IMG/VR virus record: IMGVR_UViG_3300045988_135432
Coordinates: 1-43,685 of that record
Direction: 5' to 3' (one strand)
From: a virus
DNA length: 43,685 nucleotides
How positions within the stretch are numbered: the stretch's first letter is position 1; every line of letters begins with the position of its first letter. Shown here piece after piece: positions 202 to 42,655 of this stretch. The notes under the pieces were generated by a model that was not told where the DNA came from, made no database searches, and worked only from the letters and a program-made list of their open reading frames with translations. The translations under genes were made by a program, and so were the position numbers.

Positions 202-230
202 TTGACAAGTAAATGCGAATGTGCTATAAT
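202..230 (+). promoter_or_regulatory. Perfect sigma70-type promoter TTGACA-17-TATAAT driving the plus-strand accessory module
   Basis: TTGACA 202-207, 17-nt spacer, TATAAT 225-230. The spacer holds the 18-mer ACAAGTAAATGCGAATGT (205-222), also present at 43578-43595. Confidence 0.75.
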
Positions 231-3266: not shown

Positions 3267-3546
3267 GTTACCCCACATTACCCCTCGCCCCGAAAATGGG
3301 GTAACTGGAAAATGTCAGGTAGAATGGGCATATATTATATATGTTACCCCTGTTACCCCTGTTACCCCTATATTCTCGTATACGCGCGTACATTTTTGTG
3401 TCTATCTCAAAAAAATTTTTCTCGCGCGTATATAGCATATAAAATCGCAAAATTGGGGTAACGGGGTAACAACACCCGATTTTGCCAGGTTTTACGGGCA
3501 CTTTTCTGTTACCCCGGTGGGGTAATGGGGTGGTAACCGGGGTAAC
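3267..3546. repeat. Iteron field: about 11 copies of GGGGTAAC/GTTACCCC in both orientations around an AT-rich core
   Basis: GTTACCCC at 3267, 3343, 3352, 3361 and 3508. GGGGTAAC at 3298, 3455, 3463 and 3539. Variants at 3277 and 3519. AT-rich 3369-3454 with inverted CGTATACGCGCG / CGCGCGTATA. Confidence 0.85.
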
Positions 3547-11922: not shown

Positions 11923-12097
11923 TTTCGTCCTCCTTTGTTTCTATCTGTCTCCCCAGTCTGTTGATATCACCAAGAATTGTCTTAAGCCCATCTGAATCGC
12001 TGTGTAAGCACGTTTCGCAGATATAATTGCATCCGGCAGTGGATTTCCACGGGCAGTTCATAAACGCCATTGAGCGTTCTTCGAACGTGTTGTTCAT
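11915..12097 (-). CDS. Cys-rich small protein (60 aa)
   Basis: MNCPWKSTAGCNYICETC motif. Confidence 0.5.
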   Translation of the reverse strand: MNNTFEERSMAFMNCPWKSTAGCNYICETCLHSDSDGLKTILGDINRLGRQIETKEDENG

Positions 12098-13443
12098 TCT
12101 TCCTCCTCCGGAAATCTCAGCTTCGTCACGGCGATCGGGAATTCCTCAATCTCACTCGCCCATCTCGCCGAGCCCCTGCCGTGAAACGTCTCCCAACACA
12201 GCGGGAAGCCGCCGATCCCGTCGAACAGGCTGCCCATCGTCGCGCCGGCCGGAAGATATTCGCTCATCCGGCGGAGCATCCAGAGCCAGAAGGGGAGGGC
12301 GATTGAGTTCCCGAGTGCCTTATACCTCGGCGCGTCGGCGGATTTGTGTTTCTTGCCCTTCGTGTCGATCCAGTTGCCGATGTCCGTCCACCCGTCCGGG
12401 AAGCCTTGAAGCCGCTCGCATTCAAGCGGTGTCAGACGCCGGACCGCGCCATCCTGAACGCTCAGATCGAGCGAGGATAGCTTACATTGATTGCTACATT
12501 GCGTACTCGCCACATCGGATTCAGCCATGCCGCCGAACCCCTGATTCGAGAAGGTGAGTGGTATCTGATTCCCGCCCGTTCCCATCCTGCCTTGCAAGGT
12601 CGGCGACACCTCACCGCAGTCGCGGATCACGTCACTTGCGTGCGCCATGTCATAGCACACAGCCGGGCGGTCAATCGTGTTGAGCGTATAACTCACGTTT
12701 TCGCGCCATCCGCGACCGTTGCATCCCACTGTGTCGGCGCGGTCGATCACATTGCCTTGCAGACAAATCACTGCCTGATTATTTGCGCCGCTGTTTCTTC
12801 GTGCTGAGAGCGTAGGGAACACTCCCGCACTTTGATAAATCCGTCTGCTCTGGCAATCCCACGGGGTCAGGCATCCAGCGCCGTCTTTTTTAACACCGCC
12901 TTCAACGCTTCCGGCAGCTCCTTCCCGCGCCTCTCCGCGCGTCTCAGAATCCCCAGACACGCCGTCGCGCTCAAAGAGTATTTCGGGTGCGGTTTCTCCT
13001 CCAAAATCTGCGACAAGTGCGATTCGACGGCGACGTTGGGGGACTCCCCAGAATTGCGCGTCGTGCACTCGCCAGGCGACTGAATACCCATCGCCCACGA
13101 CGCATCCGGCGTGTGCCCATCTGCCTTTCGGAGGTTGAGGGACAGTAGCTGACTCGTCGACGACTTTGACGATTTCTTCGAGGACGATCCGGAAGTCTTC
13201 GCCTCGGTTGCTGCTGAATGCTCCGGGGACGTTTTCCCAGACCATGTATCGCGGTTTTCCATATTTTCTGCGCATCTCCTTTACAATCCTGATTTGCTCC
13301 ATAAACAGTCCGGAGCGTGCGCCGGATAACCCGGCGCGTTTTCCTGCCACACTCAAGTCCTGGCAGGGCGAGCCGCCGATAATGCAGTTGACGGGTTCGA
13401 TCTCATCCCCGCGGATAAGTGTGATGTCTCCTAAGTGCTTCAC
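12094..13443 (-). CDS. DNA (cytosine-5) methyltransferase, circularly permuted (motif order III-IV-VI-VIII-TRD-IX-X-I-II)
   Basis: GGSPCQDLSVAG (IV) at residues 23-34, ENVPG (VI), QRRRR (VIII), RRLTPLECERLQGFPDGW (IX), GNSIALPF (X). LFDGIGGF (I) and ASEIEEFPIAVTKLRFPE (II) form the C-terminus. GTG start after GGGAGGT. Confidence 0.85.
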   Translation of the reverse strand: MKHLGDITLIRGDEIEPVNCIIGGSPCQDLSVAGKRAGLSGARSGLFMEQIRIVKEMRRKYGKPRYMVWENVPGAFSSNRGEDFRIVLEEIVKVVDESATVPQPPKGRWAHAGCVVGDGYSVAWRVHDAQFWGVPQRRRRIALVADFGGETAPEILFERDGVSGDSETRGEAREGAAGSVEGGVKKDGAGCLTPWDCQSRRIYQSAGVFPTLSARRNSGANNQAVICLQGNVIDRADTVGCNGRGWRENVSYTLNTIDRPAVCYDMAHASDVIRDCGEVSPTLQGRMGTGGNQIPLTFSNQGFGGMAESDVASTQCSNQCKLSSLDLSVQDGAVRRLTPLECERLQGFPDGWTDIGNWIDTKGKKHKSADAPRYKALGNSIALPFWLWMLRRMSEYLPAGATMGSLFDGIGGFPLCWETFHGRGSARWASEIEEFPIAVTKLRFPEEEE

Positions 13444-18242: not shown

Positions 18243-18271
18243 TTGACAAATCAATGGCAACGTGATATAAT
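18243..18271 (+). promoter_or_regulatory. Perfect consensus promoter TTGACA-17-TATAAT for the toxin-like mini-gene
   Basis: TTGACA 18243-18248, TATAAT 18266-18271. Confidence 0.75.
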
Positions 18272-18320
18272 AGTAGTACCACATAGCAACCGTCGGGTGA
18301 GGGCTCGACACCCTATACTG

Positions 18321-18338
18321 AGAGCGCCACAGAGCGCC
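18321..18338 (+). repeat. Tandem AGAGCGCC-AC-AGAGCGCC in the 5' leader, 10 nt upstream of the SD
   Basis: Exact 8-mers at 18321 and 18331. The same dyad occurs at 38414-38430 and 42192-42208 (minus sense). Confidence 0.85.
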
Positions 18339-18362: not shown

Positions 18363-18446
18363 GTGAGTAAATTCGAGAAACTGTACCTAACCGTATGCAT
18401 TCTCCAGCTCATCGTTGACCTCTTAATGCTTGGTCTGACGCTTTAA
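18363..18446 (+). CDS. 27-aa hydrophobic peptide (V/M)SKFEKLYLTVCILQLIVDLLMLGLTL, type I toxin / holin-like-toxin candidate
   Basis: GTG 5 nt after GGGGAGGTG. A single predicted TM helix. Under 60 aa, so absent from the ORF track. Confidence 0.55.
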   Translation: MSKFEKLYLTVCILQLIVDLLMLGLTL

Positions 18447-36636: not shown

Positions 36637-37659
36637 TTAGCCGTTCGTGAGGAGGCGCGCGATCGGGATTTCCTTCGGAGCGAACTTAAGAACCCAGTTT
36701 GCGGACGCCTCGAGCTGCGCGTCGGTGGGGGAGTTGGTCCAGCCGGTGGAAGGCAGCTTGAACGAGAAGCCGTTCGGGTGGATGCACTCGCGGATTCTGG
36801 TGATGAGAGTGTCCTGACCGTTGTTCTTCGTCGGCTCGCGGAAAGTCTCGACCGGCACGTCCTGTCTTGCCCAGCAGTGGCGGAGAACGCCGGTACCGAG
36901 GAGGTAGGTCGTGTACTTCTTAAGGTCCTTGTTCGCCTCGGAGCCGCCGACCGCGGTGACCGGAACGCCGTCGTCGATGATGACGGTATAGCCGTTCACG
37001 GACGCGAGACCGAGGTTCCTCTGGATGCCGTTCGCGTCGGTCTGCTTCCAGTAATCGAGAACCTGGAGGTTTTCGAGGGTGCGGGCGACAGAGGAGTGCA
37101 TGATAGCGAGCTTGTACGCGTCCTTGTTGTCGCCGAGGGTATCGGTCGCAAGGTCGTTGAGGTCGGTCTCGTTAATCTTTCTCGCGGTCGCGGTCGCGGA
37201 GCCGACGTCGACGGTGTGAGCGGTCCACGCGGCGTTGCCGGTGATGCCGAAGATTGCGCCGAGGATGGCGATAATCTTCTTCTGGCGGTACTTCGCCCAG
37301 AATTTCGCGGTGGACGAGATGATGTGGCCCATCGGGTCTGCGCCGGAAAGCTCGCCTACGAAGTCACGCGCGGTCCATGCGACGTCGCGGCCGTACGCGA
37401 CATAGTTCTGCTGGTCTGCCTGGGTCTCGGTCGAGGTAATGTCGGTCTGGCCGTCGTGGTTCACGGGAGTGCCGGCGAGGGTCTTGTAGAACGGAATGGT
37501 GCCGTAGTTGCCGGAGGATATGAGTCTCGAGGCGAGCACCGGGTCTTCAACCATTACGCCGGAATCGAGGAGCGCGGTCTTTTCGGAGTCGGGCTCTGCA
37601 AGCCAGCGGGCAATGAAGAGATCGTCGTCAAAGGGGTAGTTGAGGTAGGTCTTGGACAT
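36637..37659 (-). CDS. Major capsid protein
   Basis: 340 aa; immediately follows the scaffold gene. Confidence 0.85.
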   Translation of the reverse strand: MSKTYLNYPFDDDLFIARWLAEPDSEKTALLDSGVMVEDPVLASRLISSGNYGTIPFYKTLAGTPVNHDGQTDITSTETQADQQNYVAYGRDVAWTARDFVGELSGADPMGHIISSTAKFWAKYRQKKIIAILGAIFGITGNAAWTAHTVDVGSATATARKINETDLNDLATDTLGDNKDAYKLAIMHSSVARTLENLQVLDYWKQTDANGIQRNLGLASVNGYTVIIDDGVPVTAVGGSEANKDLKKYTTYLLGTGVLRHCWARQDVPVETFREPTKNNGQDTLITRIRECIHPNGFSFKLPSTGWTNSPTDAQLEASANWVLKFAPKEIPIARLLTNG

Positions 37660-37695: not shown

Positions 37696-38238
37696 TCACG
37701 CCTTGAAGAGTGCCGCGAATTCGGTCGGATTATCGTTCTTGAACTGGACCTGTTCGGCGAAAGTGAGCTTGCCGAAAGCTTCTTTGGTCATGGCGGTCGT
37801 TGCGGGAGCCTGCGAGGGGGCTTTGACGCCGGCCGCGAGTTCGCCCTTGACCTTGTTCGCCGTCGCTTCTCCATAAGCCTTGAACGCCGCCGCAATCGCC
37901 GTAGCGACCGAGGTCGTCTGTTCTGCGTCAGTGGTGACAATGCCATCGAGGAAGGTCTCGTAGGCTTCCTTGGTCATGCCGTTCCCCGCGAGGATGCTCG
38001 CGGCTTCCTGCCGGTTCGCCTTGACGGTGAGCTGCTCGATCTGCTGCCTCTGCGCTTCGAGGCGTTCGGTCAGAGTGCCTTCATTGGTCTTCATGTCCTT
38101 CTTCGCTTTGGCGAGGTCGGACGCGGTCTTGTCGAAGGTCTCTTTGTTCACGAAGTTCTTGGTCGAGAGCGCCGTCGCGATCTCTTCCGCAGTCATTCCT
38201 TCGCGGTAATCTTCACCGAGTAAATCTCTGAGTTCCAT
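37696..38238 (-). CDS. Scaffolding protein (GP20-like)
   Basis: Helical and charged; AAAGGGA SD before the ATG at 38238 (the upstream ATG at 38283 lacks an SD). Confidence 0.8.
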   Translation of the reverse strand: MELRDLLGEDYREGMTAEEIATALSTKNFVNKETFDKTASDLAKAKKDMKTNEGTLTERLEAQRQQIEQLTVKANRQEAASILAGNGMTKEAYETFLDGIVTTDAEQTTSVATAIAAAFKAYGEATANKVKGELAAGVKAPSQAPATTAMTKEAFGKLTFAEQVQFKNDNPTEFAALFKA

Positions 38239-38317
38239 GTGATAATCCCTTTCTGCGTTTGGTGAGGCGGTTCTCTCCGCCATAGATTCGCGTTTTTCGG
38301 ACTTCTCTGTCCATTGT

Positions 38318-38369
38318 TTAATAAATTAAAACCAGCGTCGCCCCGAGGAGTGGACTTAATAAATTAAAA
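38318..38369. repeat. Two exact copies of the AT-rich 14-mer TTAATAAATTAAAA, 38 bp apart
   Basis: Copies at 38318-38331 and 38356-38369, in otherwise GC-rich DNA upstream of the scaffold gene. Confidence 0.85.
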
Positions 38370-38421
38370 AGAGCGCCAGAACCGACAGGCTGTGTAAAAG
38401 CCTGTAGATATCTGGCGCTCT
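38365..38421 (-). terminator. Branched intrinsic terminator after portal and com
   Basis: Minus strand: AGAGCGCCAGA ... ACAGGCT tttacac AGCCTGT ... TCTGGCGCTCT followed by TTTTT. Confidence 0.7.
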
Positions 38422-38430
38422 TGGCGCTCT
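38414..38430 (-). repeat. Tandem AGAGCGCC-A-AGAGCGCC (minus sense); the second copy forms the 5' arm of the terminator stem
   Basis: ggcgctct at 38414-38421 and 38423-38430 on the plus strand. Confidence 0.85.
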
Positions 38431-38455
38431 GTGTTGTAGTGCGGGGTGTCCCCGC

Positions 38456-38641
38456 TTATGACGCGACCGTGCGTATGACGGCGTGTGAGCCTTCTGTGTG
38501 GGCTCTGACCGTCGTTCCGCAGCCGCGACACTTTATCTCCGCCACACCGTTTATTGCTCCGAGGAGCCGCCCACAGTGCGGGCAGCGGACTTTAATCAGT
38601 TCCGGAGCTTCCGCCGCCGGAATCGCTTTTGTTTCCGTCAT
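38456..38641 (-). CDS. com: Mu Com-like zinc-ribbon protein (61 aa)
   Basis: VRCPHCGRLLGAINGVAEIKCRGCG matches the Com pattern (RC..C..LL......E.KC..C). SD GGAGG. The start lies inside the last 50 nt of the portal gene. Confidence 0.75.
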   Translation of the reverse strand: MTETKAIPAAEAPELIKVRCPHCGRLLGAINGVAEIKCRGCGTTVRAHTEGSHAVIRTVAS

Positions 38642-40151
38642 TGCTTCCGCCTCCGGGCTTGTCCGGCCCTGAATTGTCCTGCCCGGCAGCCCCGCTCTGG
38701 AGCCGCGCGGCGAGGTATGGGATCGAGTCGATATACGCCTGGTTCGGATCGTCGAACAGGTGGGGTATACCGAACGCGATTTCGGGGTGTACTCCGGCGT
38801 CGAGAAGGTTCATGAGAGCCTGCGTTTTGACGAGCAGATTCTCGGTGTTGCCCTTCGTGAACCGGATGTCGATGTCGGCGAGCCCTAGGTCGAGCTTGCC
38901 GTATGTTCTGAGGAGCGACAGCGCGATGCGGAGGAACTGTTTTTCGCTTCGTTCCCACTGCATAACGGTGTCTCTGGCGCAGCTTTCCGCCATTGCCCAT
39001 CCGTCGCGGAGCAGTACGGCGTTGCCAGTGTCTCCGGTCGTGCGGTTCGCGCCGTTTCTGTCCGGCATACCGCAGATTGTGAGGGCTTGCTGATAGAGGT
39101 GGTCGATTTCGACCTGTGTCTGCGATTGGTCGAGTTCGGATGAGATGATATCGACGTCCGAGGGGTTTGAGTTGTCCGACTTGATGACGATAGCGCCTTC
39201 CTGCCGGAATTCCTTATACTTCTCGGGGTCTATCTGGCAGTTGACGAATTTAATGAAACTCTGGACGAACTGTTCCGTACCGTCGAGCCGGTTCGAGGAC
39301 AGTTTGTTGATGCCGTCGAGGACTTCGAGAACAACCTCGAAGGAACCGAGCCGCGCGTTGTTGAGCGGGTACTCGATGATCGGAACCGCCCCGATGCCGT
39401 GGAGCCTCGAGGACGTGACTGTGTTGTTCACGATCTCGAACTGCATTGTATCCGTCCAGACGGTGTAGATCGTCTGCTGCTTGTCTCTGAGCGTCTCCTG
39501 GAACGCCATGATGGGCTTCGCGCCGAGCTCTTTCGAGTAGACGACGCCGGTCCGTCTCGGGTCGAGACTGCCGATTTCGATTTTTTCGTCGTTTTCGAGG
39601 CTGCCGATGACATATCGGAACGCGGTTCCGCAGATGTGGTTCCACTCGGCTATGTCGTGGTCGATAGCTTCCTTGTCGAGGACGTGCATGATTTCGTTGA
39701 GCCGCCCGACCTTTTCGGACACCGGATCGCGCGTCTGCGCGGCGGTGATCTCGTCGGGGGTCATGGTCATGCGCGCCTCTCCGCTCCGGATTTTCCGGCG
39801 CGTGTACGCGATGGGCGCTCCGAGAAGATACGCGACCTTGAAGGAGACGATTTCCCACGCGTGATTTTCGACGATTTTGTTGTTGATCTCCGGTCGTACT
39901 TCCTTGACGCGGTTGAGGATGGGCTGTCTGCCCTTGTAGTAGCCGTAGAGATAATTTATGTCGCTCTGGTTCCGGTGAAAGGTCGGAAGGACCTCGTTCA
40001 GCACCTGTACGACGTTCTCCGCGTCGACCGTTTCCGCGTCGGTGTAGATGACGTGTCGTCCGGTCAGTACCGGAGAGACGTCGGGGAGGTCTGCCGCGCC
40101 GAATATGGGTGTTCCGTCGTCCGCATACCCTTCGACTTTTGGTTCCGCCAT
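38592..40151 (-). CDS. Portal protein (SPP1 gp6-like)
   Basis: 519 aa after terL; NYLYGYYKGRQPILNR...NNKIVENHA pattern; Gly/Ser-rich C-terminal tail. Confidence 0.88.
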   Translation of the reverse strand: MAEPKVEGYADDGTPIFGAADLPDVSPVLTGRHVIYTDAETVDAENVVQVLNEVLPTFHRNQSDINYLYGYYKGRQPILNRVKEVRPEINNKIVENHAWEIVSFKVAYLLGAPIAYTRRKIRSGEARMTMTPDEITAAQTRDPVSEKVGRLNEIMHVLDKEAIDHDIAEWNHICGTAFRYVIGSLENDEKIEIGSLDPRRTGVVYSKELGAKPIMAFQETLRDKQQTIYTVWTDTMQFEIVNNTVTSSRLHGIGAVPIIEYPLNNARLGSFEVVLEVLDGINKLSSNRLDGTEQFVQSFIKFVNCQIDPEKYKEFRQEGAIVIKSDNSNPSDVDIISSELDQSQTQVEIDHLYQQALTICGMPDRNGANRTTGDTGNAVLLRDGWAMAESCARDTVMQWERSEKQFLRIALSLLRTYGKLDLGLADIDIRFTKGNTENLLVKTQALMNLLDAGVHPEIAFGIPHLFDDPNQAYIDSIPYLAARLQSGAAGQDNSGPDKPGGGSNDGNKSDSGGGSSGTD

Positions 40152-40295: not shown

Positions 40296-40324
40296 ATTAT
40301 ACACCTTAAACGAATTTTTGTCAA
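40296..40324 (-). promoter_or_regulatory. Perfect consensus promoter TTGACA-17-TATAAT between terL and portal
   Basis: Reverse complement: TTGACA = 40324-40319, TATAAT = 40301-40296. Confidence 0.7.
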
Positions 40325-40392: not shown

Positions 40393-42168
40393 TCAGAATA
40401 CTCGTTTCTGCACCGAGACGATACCCCAGTTTCCGGTGGCAAGGTCCATGAGCTGTGCGAGCGAATCGGGCGCGTCGTCGTGGACGTTCTTGCCGAGTGA
40501 GACGAAGGAGCAGAGCCATTCGATGAACGAACGGTACTCCGGCGTCGAGTGATCGAAATCGAGAAAATGAATCTTCGCGATGTCCGGCGCATATTGGATG
40601 ATGCGGGAGAGCTTTGAGGCGTTGCCGGGCGCGCGGCGCGTCGAGATGTTGAGCGAGCAGCCTTTCGCGCGGAGCATTTCGTCGATTGCCTGCGCGTATT
40701 CGGTTCCGCCGTTGTTCGCCTCGAACTGTACCTGATGCGGGCGGTGGATAAGCAGCTTGCCGACCACTTCGGGCTGTGTGAATACCTTGTTCGCGTTCGA
40801 GAACACCACATCGACGCAGTACATTGAGCCGTCTCCGTACACATAGACGATAGGCATTGACAGATAGTCCTCGCCGCCCCACGCGACGTCGCAAGCAGCG
40901 ATAATGCGCTCCGGCGATCCGCCCGGCAGCACGCCGTTGTAGCGGAGCAGTGAATCCGGCGGAAAGACGAGACCCTGACGGACGTACGGAGCGCCCTGGT
41001 ACTTCGCACACCATGTGCAGTCGTCGATTGACGCTTTCATGTCGCGGTAGTATTCGGTCGAGAATCCGACGCCGTAGTCGTACTGGAAATTGGATTCGCC
41101 GTTCGCGTCGAGCGCGGGAATGACGGTGAAGCGGTATTCGGGATTGTCTCTGTACTGTTCGCGGACGCGCCCGAGAGGATCCATTACGTTCCAGCGCGTA
41201 CCGACCATCAACTGGAGCGCGCCGTCCTTCATACGGTCTTTCATCTGGTTCAGGTAGATGTTGTACTTCGCGTCGAGACGGGAGGGAGACAGCGATTCTT
41301 CGAGGTCTTTCACGAGGTCGTCGACATAGAGGATACCGTCGCGCGAGATGTCGATAGCGCCCGTCCATGTACCTTCCGCCGACCGGCAGGTCATTGTCGG
41401 GAAGCGCTTCGGGTGGTTGAGGTTGATCTGGAGGTACTTCGCCGACCGGCTTTCGACCTGCGCGTGTGGGAACACGTCGTGCCAGAGGTATTCGCCGTCC
41501 GGGTCGAGCACGGCGTTCAGCTCGCCGTAGAAGCCGTTCACGAGCGTGTCGGAGTGCCCGCCCATAGCGGACGCGTCGTCCGGATGCCGCCCCATGTGCC
41601 AGGTCAGGAAAAATATACAAATCGTGGATTTTCCCACGCGAGGCGGCATACTCACCCCGAGAAATTTAATCTTGTGCTCTTCGAGGTCTTGCAGATCGTT
41701 GCACAGCCCCATCAGAACGCTTCTTCTCGGCACCCAGAACTTCCGTGCCGGCTCTCTGTTCCATTCGACGTACTGCATATAGTGATCGAACGAGTGCGGC
41801 GCGAGCAGCAGGCAGACTTTCCGTTTCAGCTCATACCATTCCGGCGCGGCGGCTGTCTTCGCGGCGGCTGACCTCGCGAGCATACGGTTCACGACGTCGA
41901 AGAATTCTTTCCCTTTCGCCACCATGTAGGCGAGCTCTTCCTCGAACGATTCCGCCGAATTGTCCTGCGCGAGCCCCCTCAGCGCGTCGAAGTAGTCTTT
42001 CGCGACCGACAGACTGTCCGTTCCGTACGCCGCGATAGCCTCGCACAGCGCCACGCACTCCGGCAGCCGGTCGTTCCAGTTCTCAAATCCGGGAAGAACC
42101 GTTTTGTTCCCATTCTTTACCTTTTTTGATTTCTTCTTTCCAGTATCTTCACATGAAAAAGCGCCCAT
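40393..42168 (-). CDS. terL: Terminase large subunit
   Basis: Walker A PPRVGKST, Walker B ILYVDDLV, and C-terminal nuclease motifs (ACDVAWGGEDY, HDDAPDSLAQL). SD GAAGGAGA before the ATG at 42168. Confidence 0.92.
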   Translation of the reverse strand: MGAFSCEDTGKKKSKKVKNGNKTVLPGFENWNDRLPECVALCEAIAAYGTDSLSVAKDYFDALRGLAQDNSAESFEEELAYMVAKGKEFFDVVNRMLARSAAAKTAAAPEWYELKRKVCLLLAPHSFDHYMQYVEWNREPARKFWVPRRSVLMGLCNDLQDLEEHKIKFLGVSMPPRVGKSTICIFFLTWHMGRHPDDASAMGGHSDTLVNGFYGELNAVLDPDGEYLWHDVFPHAQVESRSAKYLQINLNHPKRFPTMTCRSAEGTWTGAIDISRDGILYVDDLVKDLEESLSPSRLDAKYNIYLNQMKDRMKDGALQLMVGTRWNVMDPLGRVREQYRDNPEYRFTVIPALDANGESNFQYDYGVGFSTEYYRDMKASIDDCTWCAKYQGAPYVRQGLVFPPDSLLRYNGVLPGGSPERIIAACDVAWGGEDYLSMPIVYVYGDGSMYCVDVVFSNANKVFTQPEVVGKLLIHRPHQVQFEANNGGTEYAQAIDEMLRAKGCSLNISTRRAPGNASKLSRIIQYAPDIAKIHFLDFDHSTPEYRSFIEWLCSFVSLGKNVHDDAPDSLAQLMDLATGNWGIVSVQKRVF

Positions 42169-42191
42169 GACGCCACTCTCCTTCAAGAAAT

Positions 42192-42208
42192 GGCGCTCTG
42201 GGCGCTCT
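42192..42208 (-). repeat. Tandem AGAGCGCC-C-AGAGCGCC (minus sense), 6 nt upstream of the terL SD
   Basis: ggcgctct at 42192-42199 and 42201-42208 on the plus strand. Confidence 0.85.
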
Positions 42209-42655
42209 AAGTATAGGGGTACGGTACTCCGTGCGGCGGGATGCCGGTACGGGATGGTGCGCGGGAATGCCCGCCGATAATTGCTGTTGTTGCTTGTTAT
42301 TCCGTGACCGCTTCACGCGGTCAGGTGAACGTTTGCGGCATCTGTTTGCTGTCTTTCCTTTGCGGAACAGCCGGTTGTGGCTCGGAGACTTAACACTGAA
42401 TCAGCGTTAAATCAGCGTTAAGTCAGCGTTGAACTTGCGCCGCGCTTGCTCATAACTTGCGCCAGTTTACGGTTTGTTTACGTATTGGTTAAAACTTACT
42501 TTGCGCCGGTTGGAACACGGTTCAAGCTAACTTGAAACTAACTTGAAACTAACTTGAACCTGACTTGGAACCCGGTTCAAGGCCGCCGCCCCGTTACACG
42601 TGTTATTGTGTTACGGTGTTACGGCTTGTTGGAGCTTGATTGAGTCTTGGTGGAA
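42209..42655. repeat. Non-coding mosaic of short tandem repeats and hairpins (pac/cos or recombinase-site candidate)
   Basis: (A/G)TCAGCGTT(A/G)A x3 (42399-42431), AACTTGCGCC x2, GTTTACG x2, CTAACTTGAAA x3 flanked by CGGTTCAAG x2 (42518-42581), GTGTTA(C/T) x3 (42599-42620, in ACGTGTTATTGTGTTACGGTGTTACGG). Hairpin TGACCGC ttcac GCGGTCA (42305-42323). Confidence 0.8.

Follow-up and report, generated by a model that had tools for sequence, protein, structure and literature searches.

A Com-like zinc-ribbon gene between the portal and scaffold genes of a gut phage, and predicted Com sites at a terminator and a terminase leader

The DNA analysed here, hereafter the window, is IMG/VR virus record IMGVR_UViG_3300045988_135432 at its full length of 43,685 nt. 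Its 43.7 kb appear to make up the complete genome of a temperate phage of the human gut, and faecal samples are the source of one unannotated record in the phage GenBank collection that is 97% identical to it. The gene content includes a CI-like repressor, a tyrosine integrase, a serine recombinase, a DNA methyltransferase and replication genes. IMG/VR yielded fifteen relatives, whose contigs range from 12 to 48 kb and mostly measure 43-48 kb. Near-identical phage contigs (L216-L218) occur in MAG bins labelled Akkermansia, Gastranaerophilales and Coriobacteriaceae, that is, in three phyla, and these assignments are probably binning artefacts.

On the minus strand, the virion genes follow the order terL, SPP1-type portal, a 61-aa com ORF, scaffold and Gp13-like major capsid. 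The gene for the large terminase, terL (40393-42168, minus strand; phrog_38, 3.5e-52), has its start codon set by comparison with the relatives. The portal gene (38592-40151, minus strand) is SPP1 gp6-like (PF05133, 1.6e-62; phrog_64). Its longest ORF reaches 40253, and because the first 34 codons of that ORF span a hairpin and a U-run, the ATG at 40151 is likely to be the start. The scaffolding protein gene (37696-38238, minus strand) is followed by the major capsid gene at 36637-37659 (phrog_172, PF14265 and phrog_247). The longest scaffold ORF begins with an ATG at 38283, which lies within an RNA hairpin, just 5' of the hairpin at 38281-38266, and is mutated in most relatives, so that the ATG at 38238 is taken as the true start. 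Upstream of terL, about 450 nt of non-coding DNA (42210-42650, minus strand) separate it from the serine recombinase gene. This stretch contains two triple sets of direct repeats, GTTTCAAGTTA and TTAACGCTGA, each present three times; no small terminase gene is evident, and the stretch may be a packaging or recombination site.

The com-like gene (38456-38641, minus strand, ATG at 38641) encodes a 61-aa CxxC...CxxC zinc-ribbon protein. Its Shine-Dalgarno (SD) sequence GGAGG (38650-38654, minus strand) lies inside the 3' end of the portal gene and is kept in the relatives, and, with the portal ORF ending at 38592, the two ORFs share 50 nt. These coordinates bear out the original prediction of a 61-aa ORF with GGAGG that starts in the last 50 nt of the portal gene. 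Outside the portal overlap, nine alleles differ by synonymous and non-synonymous changes at a ratio of 18:11 in the com frame; in both alternative frames the ratio is 4:27. This indicates that the ORF is a real gene under purifying selection. Conservation of the ORF in related phages, the lack of which would have counted against the original prediction, is thereby confirmed.

The protein has the features by which the Com family is recognised here, namely a length of about 60 aa, an N-terminal CxxC-(14-16)-CxxC zinc ribbon and the pattern hRCxxCxxLL...EIxCxxC, and the predicted Com signature VRCPHCGRLLGAINGVAEIKCRGCG is present in it. The four cysteines, C20, C23, C38 and C41, are invariant in 36 homologues. 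In Pfam, PF10122 (Zn_ribbon_Com) is the top-ranked family with 22.4 bits (E = 8.3e-5), 0.5 bit under its curated gathering threshold of 22.9, and in PHROGs the protein is matched by phrog_6417, annotated as 'translational regulator' (2.7e-5). PF10122 is matched by 26 of 36 relatives of the protein, with a best E-value of 9.2e-10, and alignment of the family profile with Mu Com by hhalign gives a probability of 96% and E = 4.5e-9 over 43 columns across both knuckles. The HMM search suggested for Com membership therefore gives a positive answer in rank and in the comparison with Mu Com, but falls just short in the Pfam score. On these profile matches, the protein is accepted as a homologue of Com despite the formal Pfam miss. 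A HMMER profile search of 1.84 billion representatives gives 89 matches, of which the small ones carry hRCxxCxrLLGxxxGxAEIKCPRC, and a word-indexed protein search finds only three near-identical proteins. Close relatives bear the precomputed Pfam label PF22910. The AlphaFold2 model of the 61-aa protein is all β-strand with a mean pLDDT of 82; no Com homologue is found by sequence among PDB chains, and a fold search gives no significant match. As the original prediction stated, neither a mom nor a methylase gene follows com, the next genes being scaffold and capsid. The sole DNA methyltransferase of the window lies at 12094-13443, with no Com site nearby, and the arrangement of Mu com-mom, in which an overlapping downstream DNA-modification gene is activated, is not found in the window.

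Directly after the com stop codon, the RNA contains a small GC hairpin, GCGGGG-ACA-CCCCGC (38441-38455, minus strand), at the place where it had been predicted. In the relatives it is kept as a 5-bp stem, a G-U variant included. Further downstream lies an intrinsic terminator (38361-38422, minus strand), in which a GC-rich hairpin (38422-38369) stands directly 5' of a U-tract, UUUUUAAUUU (U5AAUUU), on the transcribed strand. From base to tip, the hairpin consists of stems of 12 bp (lower), 3 bp (middle) and 7 bp (upper) and a loop of 7 nt, with a folding energy of -34.8 kcal/mol and a z-score of -10.3 against shuffled sequences. This terminator was initially described as branched; the outer stem AGAGCGCCAGA/TCTGGCGCTCT and the U5 are indeed present, but the RNA folds as a single long imperfect hairpin. 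A simple terminator scan missed it since the span between the outer arms exceeds the 8-nt loop limit of the scan. Changes in the terminator among the 15 relatives keep the pairing solely on the minus-strand RNA. They include a change from G-C to G-U in the lower stem, an upper-stem position with G-U in five loci and compensation to A-U in two others, and one double change from C-G to U-A. In Rfam, the window between 37500 and 39500 has no relevant match at E-values up to 1, and neither the window nor 11 related loci have a match at gathering score. An exact 14-nt AT-rich direct repeat, TTTTAATTTATTAA, occurs at 38369-38356 and 38331-38318 and nowhere else in the window. The first copy coincides with the U-tract region of the terminator, and both copies vary among the relatives.

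The RNA target of Haemophilus Com selected by SELEX is the bipartite motif GAG(N)2CC-(N)2-3-GAG(N)2CC (Nowacka et al., 2019, PMC6483171). The motif occupies a hairpin that is closed by a C-G pair and has a stem of 3-4 bp, and the loop CC(N)2-3GAG is the part required for Com binding (PMC6483171). Between the GC hairpin and the U-tract, the window contains GAGCGCC-AA-GAGCGCC (38414-38429, minus strand; predicted Com site C), which fits this motif exactly, the motif being derived from a Com only distantly related to the 61-aa protein. Read one nucleotide further, positions 38430-38414 (minus strand), 3' of the GC hairpin, are AGAGCGCC-A-AGAGCGCC. Site C can fold into GCGC-CAAGA-GCGC, a hairpin closed by a C-G pair (-5.5 kcal/mol), so that positions 38429-38414 combine the selected sequence with a short predicted hairpin beside the com gene. 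The repeat units are invariant in 15/15 relatives, and the single spacer base differs in one of them. The second repeat is part of the 5' arm of the terminator (38422-38411), with an overlap at 38421-38414. When the Com hairpin is enforced, the folding energy changes from -36.8 to -23.0 kcal/mol, a cost of 13.8 kcal/mol; the terminator loses its lower 8 bp, and the leftover stem ends 7 nt before the U-tract. Site C has the layout of a RAT-type switch, in which a protein site overlaps the 5' arm of a terminator and the two folds are mutually exclusive.

The SELEX motif is found exactly three times in the whole window, against 0.25 expected, and each time in the sense of local transcription. The tandem GAGCGCC repeat and its two further copies were overlooked in the original prediction, as were two AGAGAA-loop hairpins in the leader of the scaffold gene and the start of that gene at 38238. 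Site A, GAGCGCC-CA-GAGCGCC (42192-42207, minus strand), provides with both of its repeats the 5' arm of a hairpin at 42159-42207 in the terL leader. This hairpin (z = -4.1) encloses the SD sequence of terL (about 42183-42176) and its ATG at 42168 and is followed by U5, so that it also looks like a terminator; enforcing the Com hairpin changes the energy from -33.6 to -15.0 kcal/mol. Site A is conserved in the relatives and is also found upstream of terL in distant phages. Site B, GAGCGCC-ACA-GAGCGCC (18322-18338, plus strand), lies in a leader 3' of a perfect promoter (18243-18271) and precedes the strong SD sequence GGGGAGGTGG and an ORF for a 27-aa hydrophobic peptide (GTG, 18363-18446). It is identical in the relatives; its second repeat pairs weakly with the SD region, and the structure is not significant (z-score 0). 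Immediately 5' of the Com repeats, CCCTATACT is present at sites A (42208-42216, minus strand) and B (18312-18320, plus strand) and absent at site C. It was considered as a -10 element, and no -35 element was found. A relaxed scan of the window gives 11 matches against 2.7 expected, of which the eight extra ones are unconvincing.

Upstream of portal and com, a sigma-70-type promoter TTGACA-17-TATAAT (40296-40324, minus strand) agrees with the consensus at 12/12 positions. In 15/15 relatives both of its hexamers are invariant, and the spacer is variable. Five such 12/12 promoters are present in the window, at 202-230 (plus), 18243-18271 (plus), 18618-18590 (minus), 40324-40296 (minus) and 43598-43570 (minus). 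This is an unusually large number for a 43.7-kb genome, and one of them is placed in the terL-portal spacer, within the virion gene block. The promoters at 18243-18271 and 18618-18590 face each other about 320 nt apart beside the CI-like repressor gene, an arrangement that looks like a convergent-promoter switch; the rightward transcript from 18243-18271 carries site B and the conserved 27-aa hydrophobic ORF. From the terminator to the scaffold gene, the promoter scan predicts no sigma-70-like promoter.

The scaffold leader contains two hairpins with an AGAGAA hexaloop, UGGAC-AGAGAA-GUCCG (38298-38313, minus strand) and GGCGG-AGAGAA-CCGCC (38266-38281, minus strand), the latter invariant in the relatives. 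Such hairpins are found in the whole portal-com-scaffold clade (the window and L136-L213) in 1-3 copies, 15-146 nt after com. All 97 of them are on the com strand, with none on the opposite one; 33 distinct stems occur, and Rfam contains no matching family. A role as extra Com sites was considered and rejected, because CC(N)2-3GAG is missing from these hairpins and Com loci outside the portal-scaffold clade do not have them. Another factor may use them as an operator, for instance in autoregulation of the scaffold.

The gene order described above extends to distant phages. The succession of terL, portal, com, site plus terminator, scaffold and MCP is kept down to 40% portal identity, in phages with portal identities of 40-52% and scaffold identities of 32-36%, where homologous scaffold genes are again 3' of the com module. 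In another phage (L055; 36-39% identity), both the site in the terL leader and the site after com are present, as in the window. A sample of 80 diverse Com loci (424 kb), gathered starting from the protein, has 37 matches to the strict motif, all of them on the com strand and nearly all at the 3' end or stop codon of com. The relaxed motif is present in 39/51 unique Com contexts, and in 33 of these 39 the variable NN dinucleotides are complementary (CG/CG, CA/TG, GT/AC or GC/GC). When the span searched downstream of com is widened, the motif is found in 44 unique contexts. Of these, 31 show pairing of the second repeat with an arm that precedes a U-run, and the 3' arms covary with six sequence types of repeat 2. 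In a subgroup (L172, L190, L195 and L214), repeat 2 pairs with an SD sequence followed by AUG, and a U-run is absent, as in the design of Mu. These comparisons suggest that the Com family uses both outputs, the terminator type being the commoner in the present sample.

Searching from the DNA motif alone, nine unrelated viral loci have a Com-like ORF on the same strand within 500 nt upstream. The exact-match scan of viral contigs for AGAGCGCC-N1-2-AGAGCGCC yields mostly chance matches in coding DNA, and terminator-type sites account for only 17 of its 105 non-relative sites; these 17 are tandem sites not beside com. In many phages (L136-L171; proteins P0023, P0034 and P0056) the Com site falls within the coding sequence of com and reads ERQRAP or ERQRVP in translation, so that one stretch is protein tail and RNA operator at once. 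A second lineage of the Com domain (L196, L206 and L211; about 3320-3400) has the ribbon at the C-terminus of longer proteins. There, GAGCACC-N7-GAGTGCC, with a spacer longer than that of the SELEX motif, precedes a terminator directly upstream of terL.

Taken together, it is likely that Com binding holds the small hairpin at site C, prevents formation of the terminator and lets the virion genes be transcribed. We infer that the 61-aa Com binds these predicted sites and that binding prevents termination. In this mechanism, portal and com would be transcribed from their own consensus promoter (40324-40296), and without Com their transcripts would end at the terminator (38422-38361). The nascent RNA would expose GAGCGCC-AA-GAGCGCC first and could fold into the 4-bp GCGC/GCGC hairpin with the loop CAAGA, the sequence and shape selected by Com in vitro. 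Com bound there would hold repeat 2, the lower 8-9 bp of the terminator next to the U-tract could not form, and RNA polymerase would then read into scaffold, capsid and the downstream virion genes. At site A, the same Com would unfold the hairpin in which the ribosome-binding site and start codon of terL are buried, and it may also act at site B. Since portal and com have their own conserved consensus promoter, Com would be made upstream of the terminator that it opens; with no sigma-70-like promoter predicted in the spacer before the scaffold gene, portal and Com could therefore come first, and the virion genes once Com accumulates. Since the small hairpin is much less stable than the terminator, Com would need to act during transcription; its binding must offset about 14 kcal/mol, or act kinetically as the RNA emerges. 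The original idea that the Com-like protein acts on the downstream terminator accordingly gains support from three independent features, namely the overlap of the SELEX motif with the terminator, the recurrence of this design with covariation beside com genes of unrelated phages and the upstream promoter.

Another account is that the terminator merely ends the portal-com transcript, the Com site serves autoregulation of com through stability or translation, and scaffold and capsid are expressed from a separate promoter in the 217-nt spacer. The position of the Com site, always at or within the 3' end of com, suits autoregulation. The overlap between repeat 2 and the terminator arm is, on the other hand, kept through six covarying sequence types and also occurs at sites far from com, such as terL leaders, where autoregulation is inapplicable. 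As for a separate promoter, the AT-rich repeats at 38369-38356 and 38331-38318 could be an unrecognised one, a promoter of a type outside the coverage of the scan could lie in the AT-rich segment 38318-38369 and drive scaffold independently, and the AGAGAA hairpins would form a separate leader. Against this, no sigma-70-like promoter is predicted in the spacer, though the phage has five perfect consensus promoters elsewhere, and we regard this account as unlikely. Control by Com at translation only, as in Mu, is quite unlikely. It would operate at site A and perhaps B, the overlap at site C being a by-product of the position at the end of an operon. Burial of the SD and ATG at site A and the classic Mu-type design of the four loci named above agree with it. 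The site C hairpin, however, contains neither a start codon nor an SD sequence, the SD and ATG of scaffold lie 115-130 nt further on in a region whose fold is not significant, and 31 of 44 contexts are of the terminator type.

It is also conceivable, with very low probability, that the tandem GAGCGCC repeats are unrelated to Com and represent a DNA operator of another protein or a chance feature of GC-rich terminator stems. The many chance matches in coding DNA that the exact-match scan of viral contigs returns are in keeping with such an origin. They contrast with the complete strand bias in Com loci (37 versus 0), with G-U-compatible variation that points to RNA, with the Com-like ORFs found upstream of nine unrelated loci from the DNA motif alone, and with the exact match to an independently derived SELEX motif. 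Finally, translating ribosomes instead of Com could mask the terminator in the many relatives that have the site inside the com coding sequence; this is inapplicable to the window, where the com stop codon is 35 nt upstream of repeat 2 of site C.

With hairpin capture by Com retained as the preferred reading, a broader one can be drawn up, to which we assign roughly even chances as a whole. Com-family zinc ribbons would be widespread, unrecognised regulators of phage late genes that act by capturing hairpins at intrinsic terminators and translation starts. The 61-aa Com would gate terL, the scaffold-capsid-tail operon and the small membrane peptide, virion gene expression would depend on prior expression of portal and com, and the AGAGAA-loop hairpins would add to this control region a second RNA element, likewise undescribed.

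For decades Com has been regarded as a peculiarity of phage Mu, where it turns on a single DNA-modification gene; lately it has also served as a tool to recruit proteins to CRISPR guide RNAs. If the mechanism proposed here is true, the Com module would be a common switch of virion genes in many uncultivated phages of the gut and other habitats, and it would represent a protein-dependent antitermination mechanism not previously described for phage late genes. It would also explain how portal synthesis could precede synthesis of scaffold and capsid, and would offer a compact programmable terminator switch because the NN positions covary. The literature search found no report of Com-dependent antitermination, and the roles of Com that it yielded are confined to translational activation of mom or of substitute methyltransferases, in line with the earlier statement that a role in terminator coupling is undescribed for this family.

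The closest known system is Com/mom of phage Mu, with which the window shares a homologous small CCCC zinc-ribbon protein and a bipartite GAG(N)2CC RNA site at the 3' end of its own gene. In both, binding of a small hairpin would stop an adjacent inhibitory stem-loop from forming, and site A buries the SD and start codon of terL in just the way that the translation-inhibition structure of mom does. Unlike that of mom, the inhibitory structure at site C is an intrinsic terminator and not a translation block. The targets in the window are virion genes (scaffold, capsid and terminase) instead of a DNA-modification gene, three sites per genome are present instead of one, and the phage is an SPP1-like siphovirus of the gut, not a Mu-like transposable phage. 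In Mu-like prophages, Com homologues are encoded upstream of the hin1523 and nma1821 methyltransferases (PMC3299994). Like the present system, they combine a Com-like gene with a binding site presumed to lie at the start of the gene that follows; unlike it, they control a DNA-modification enzyme at translation and involve no terminator (PMC3299994).

At the level of mechanism, the proposed switch is similar to that of BglG, LicT and SacY with the RAT, where a protein stabilises a small RNA hairpin overlapping the 5' arm of a terminator and the two structures are mutually exclusive. Those proteins, however, have CAT-PRD domains, a fold unrelated to the zinc ribbon of Com, and the Com system is without sugar/PTS control, phage-encoded and located inside a morphogenesis operon. 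Lambda N with nut, and Q, likewise permit read-through of terminators by a phage factor for expression of later genes, and N recognises RNA hairpins. N and Q, which have no sequence relationship to Com, make RNA polymerase processively resistant to terminators, whereas the overlap of the Com site with one specific terminator points to a local, non-processive action of Com.
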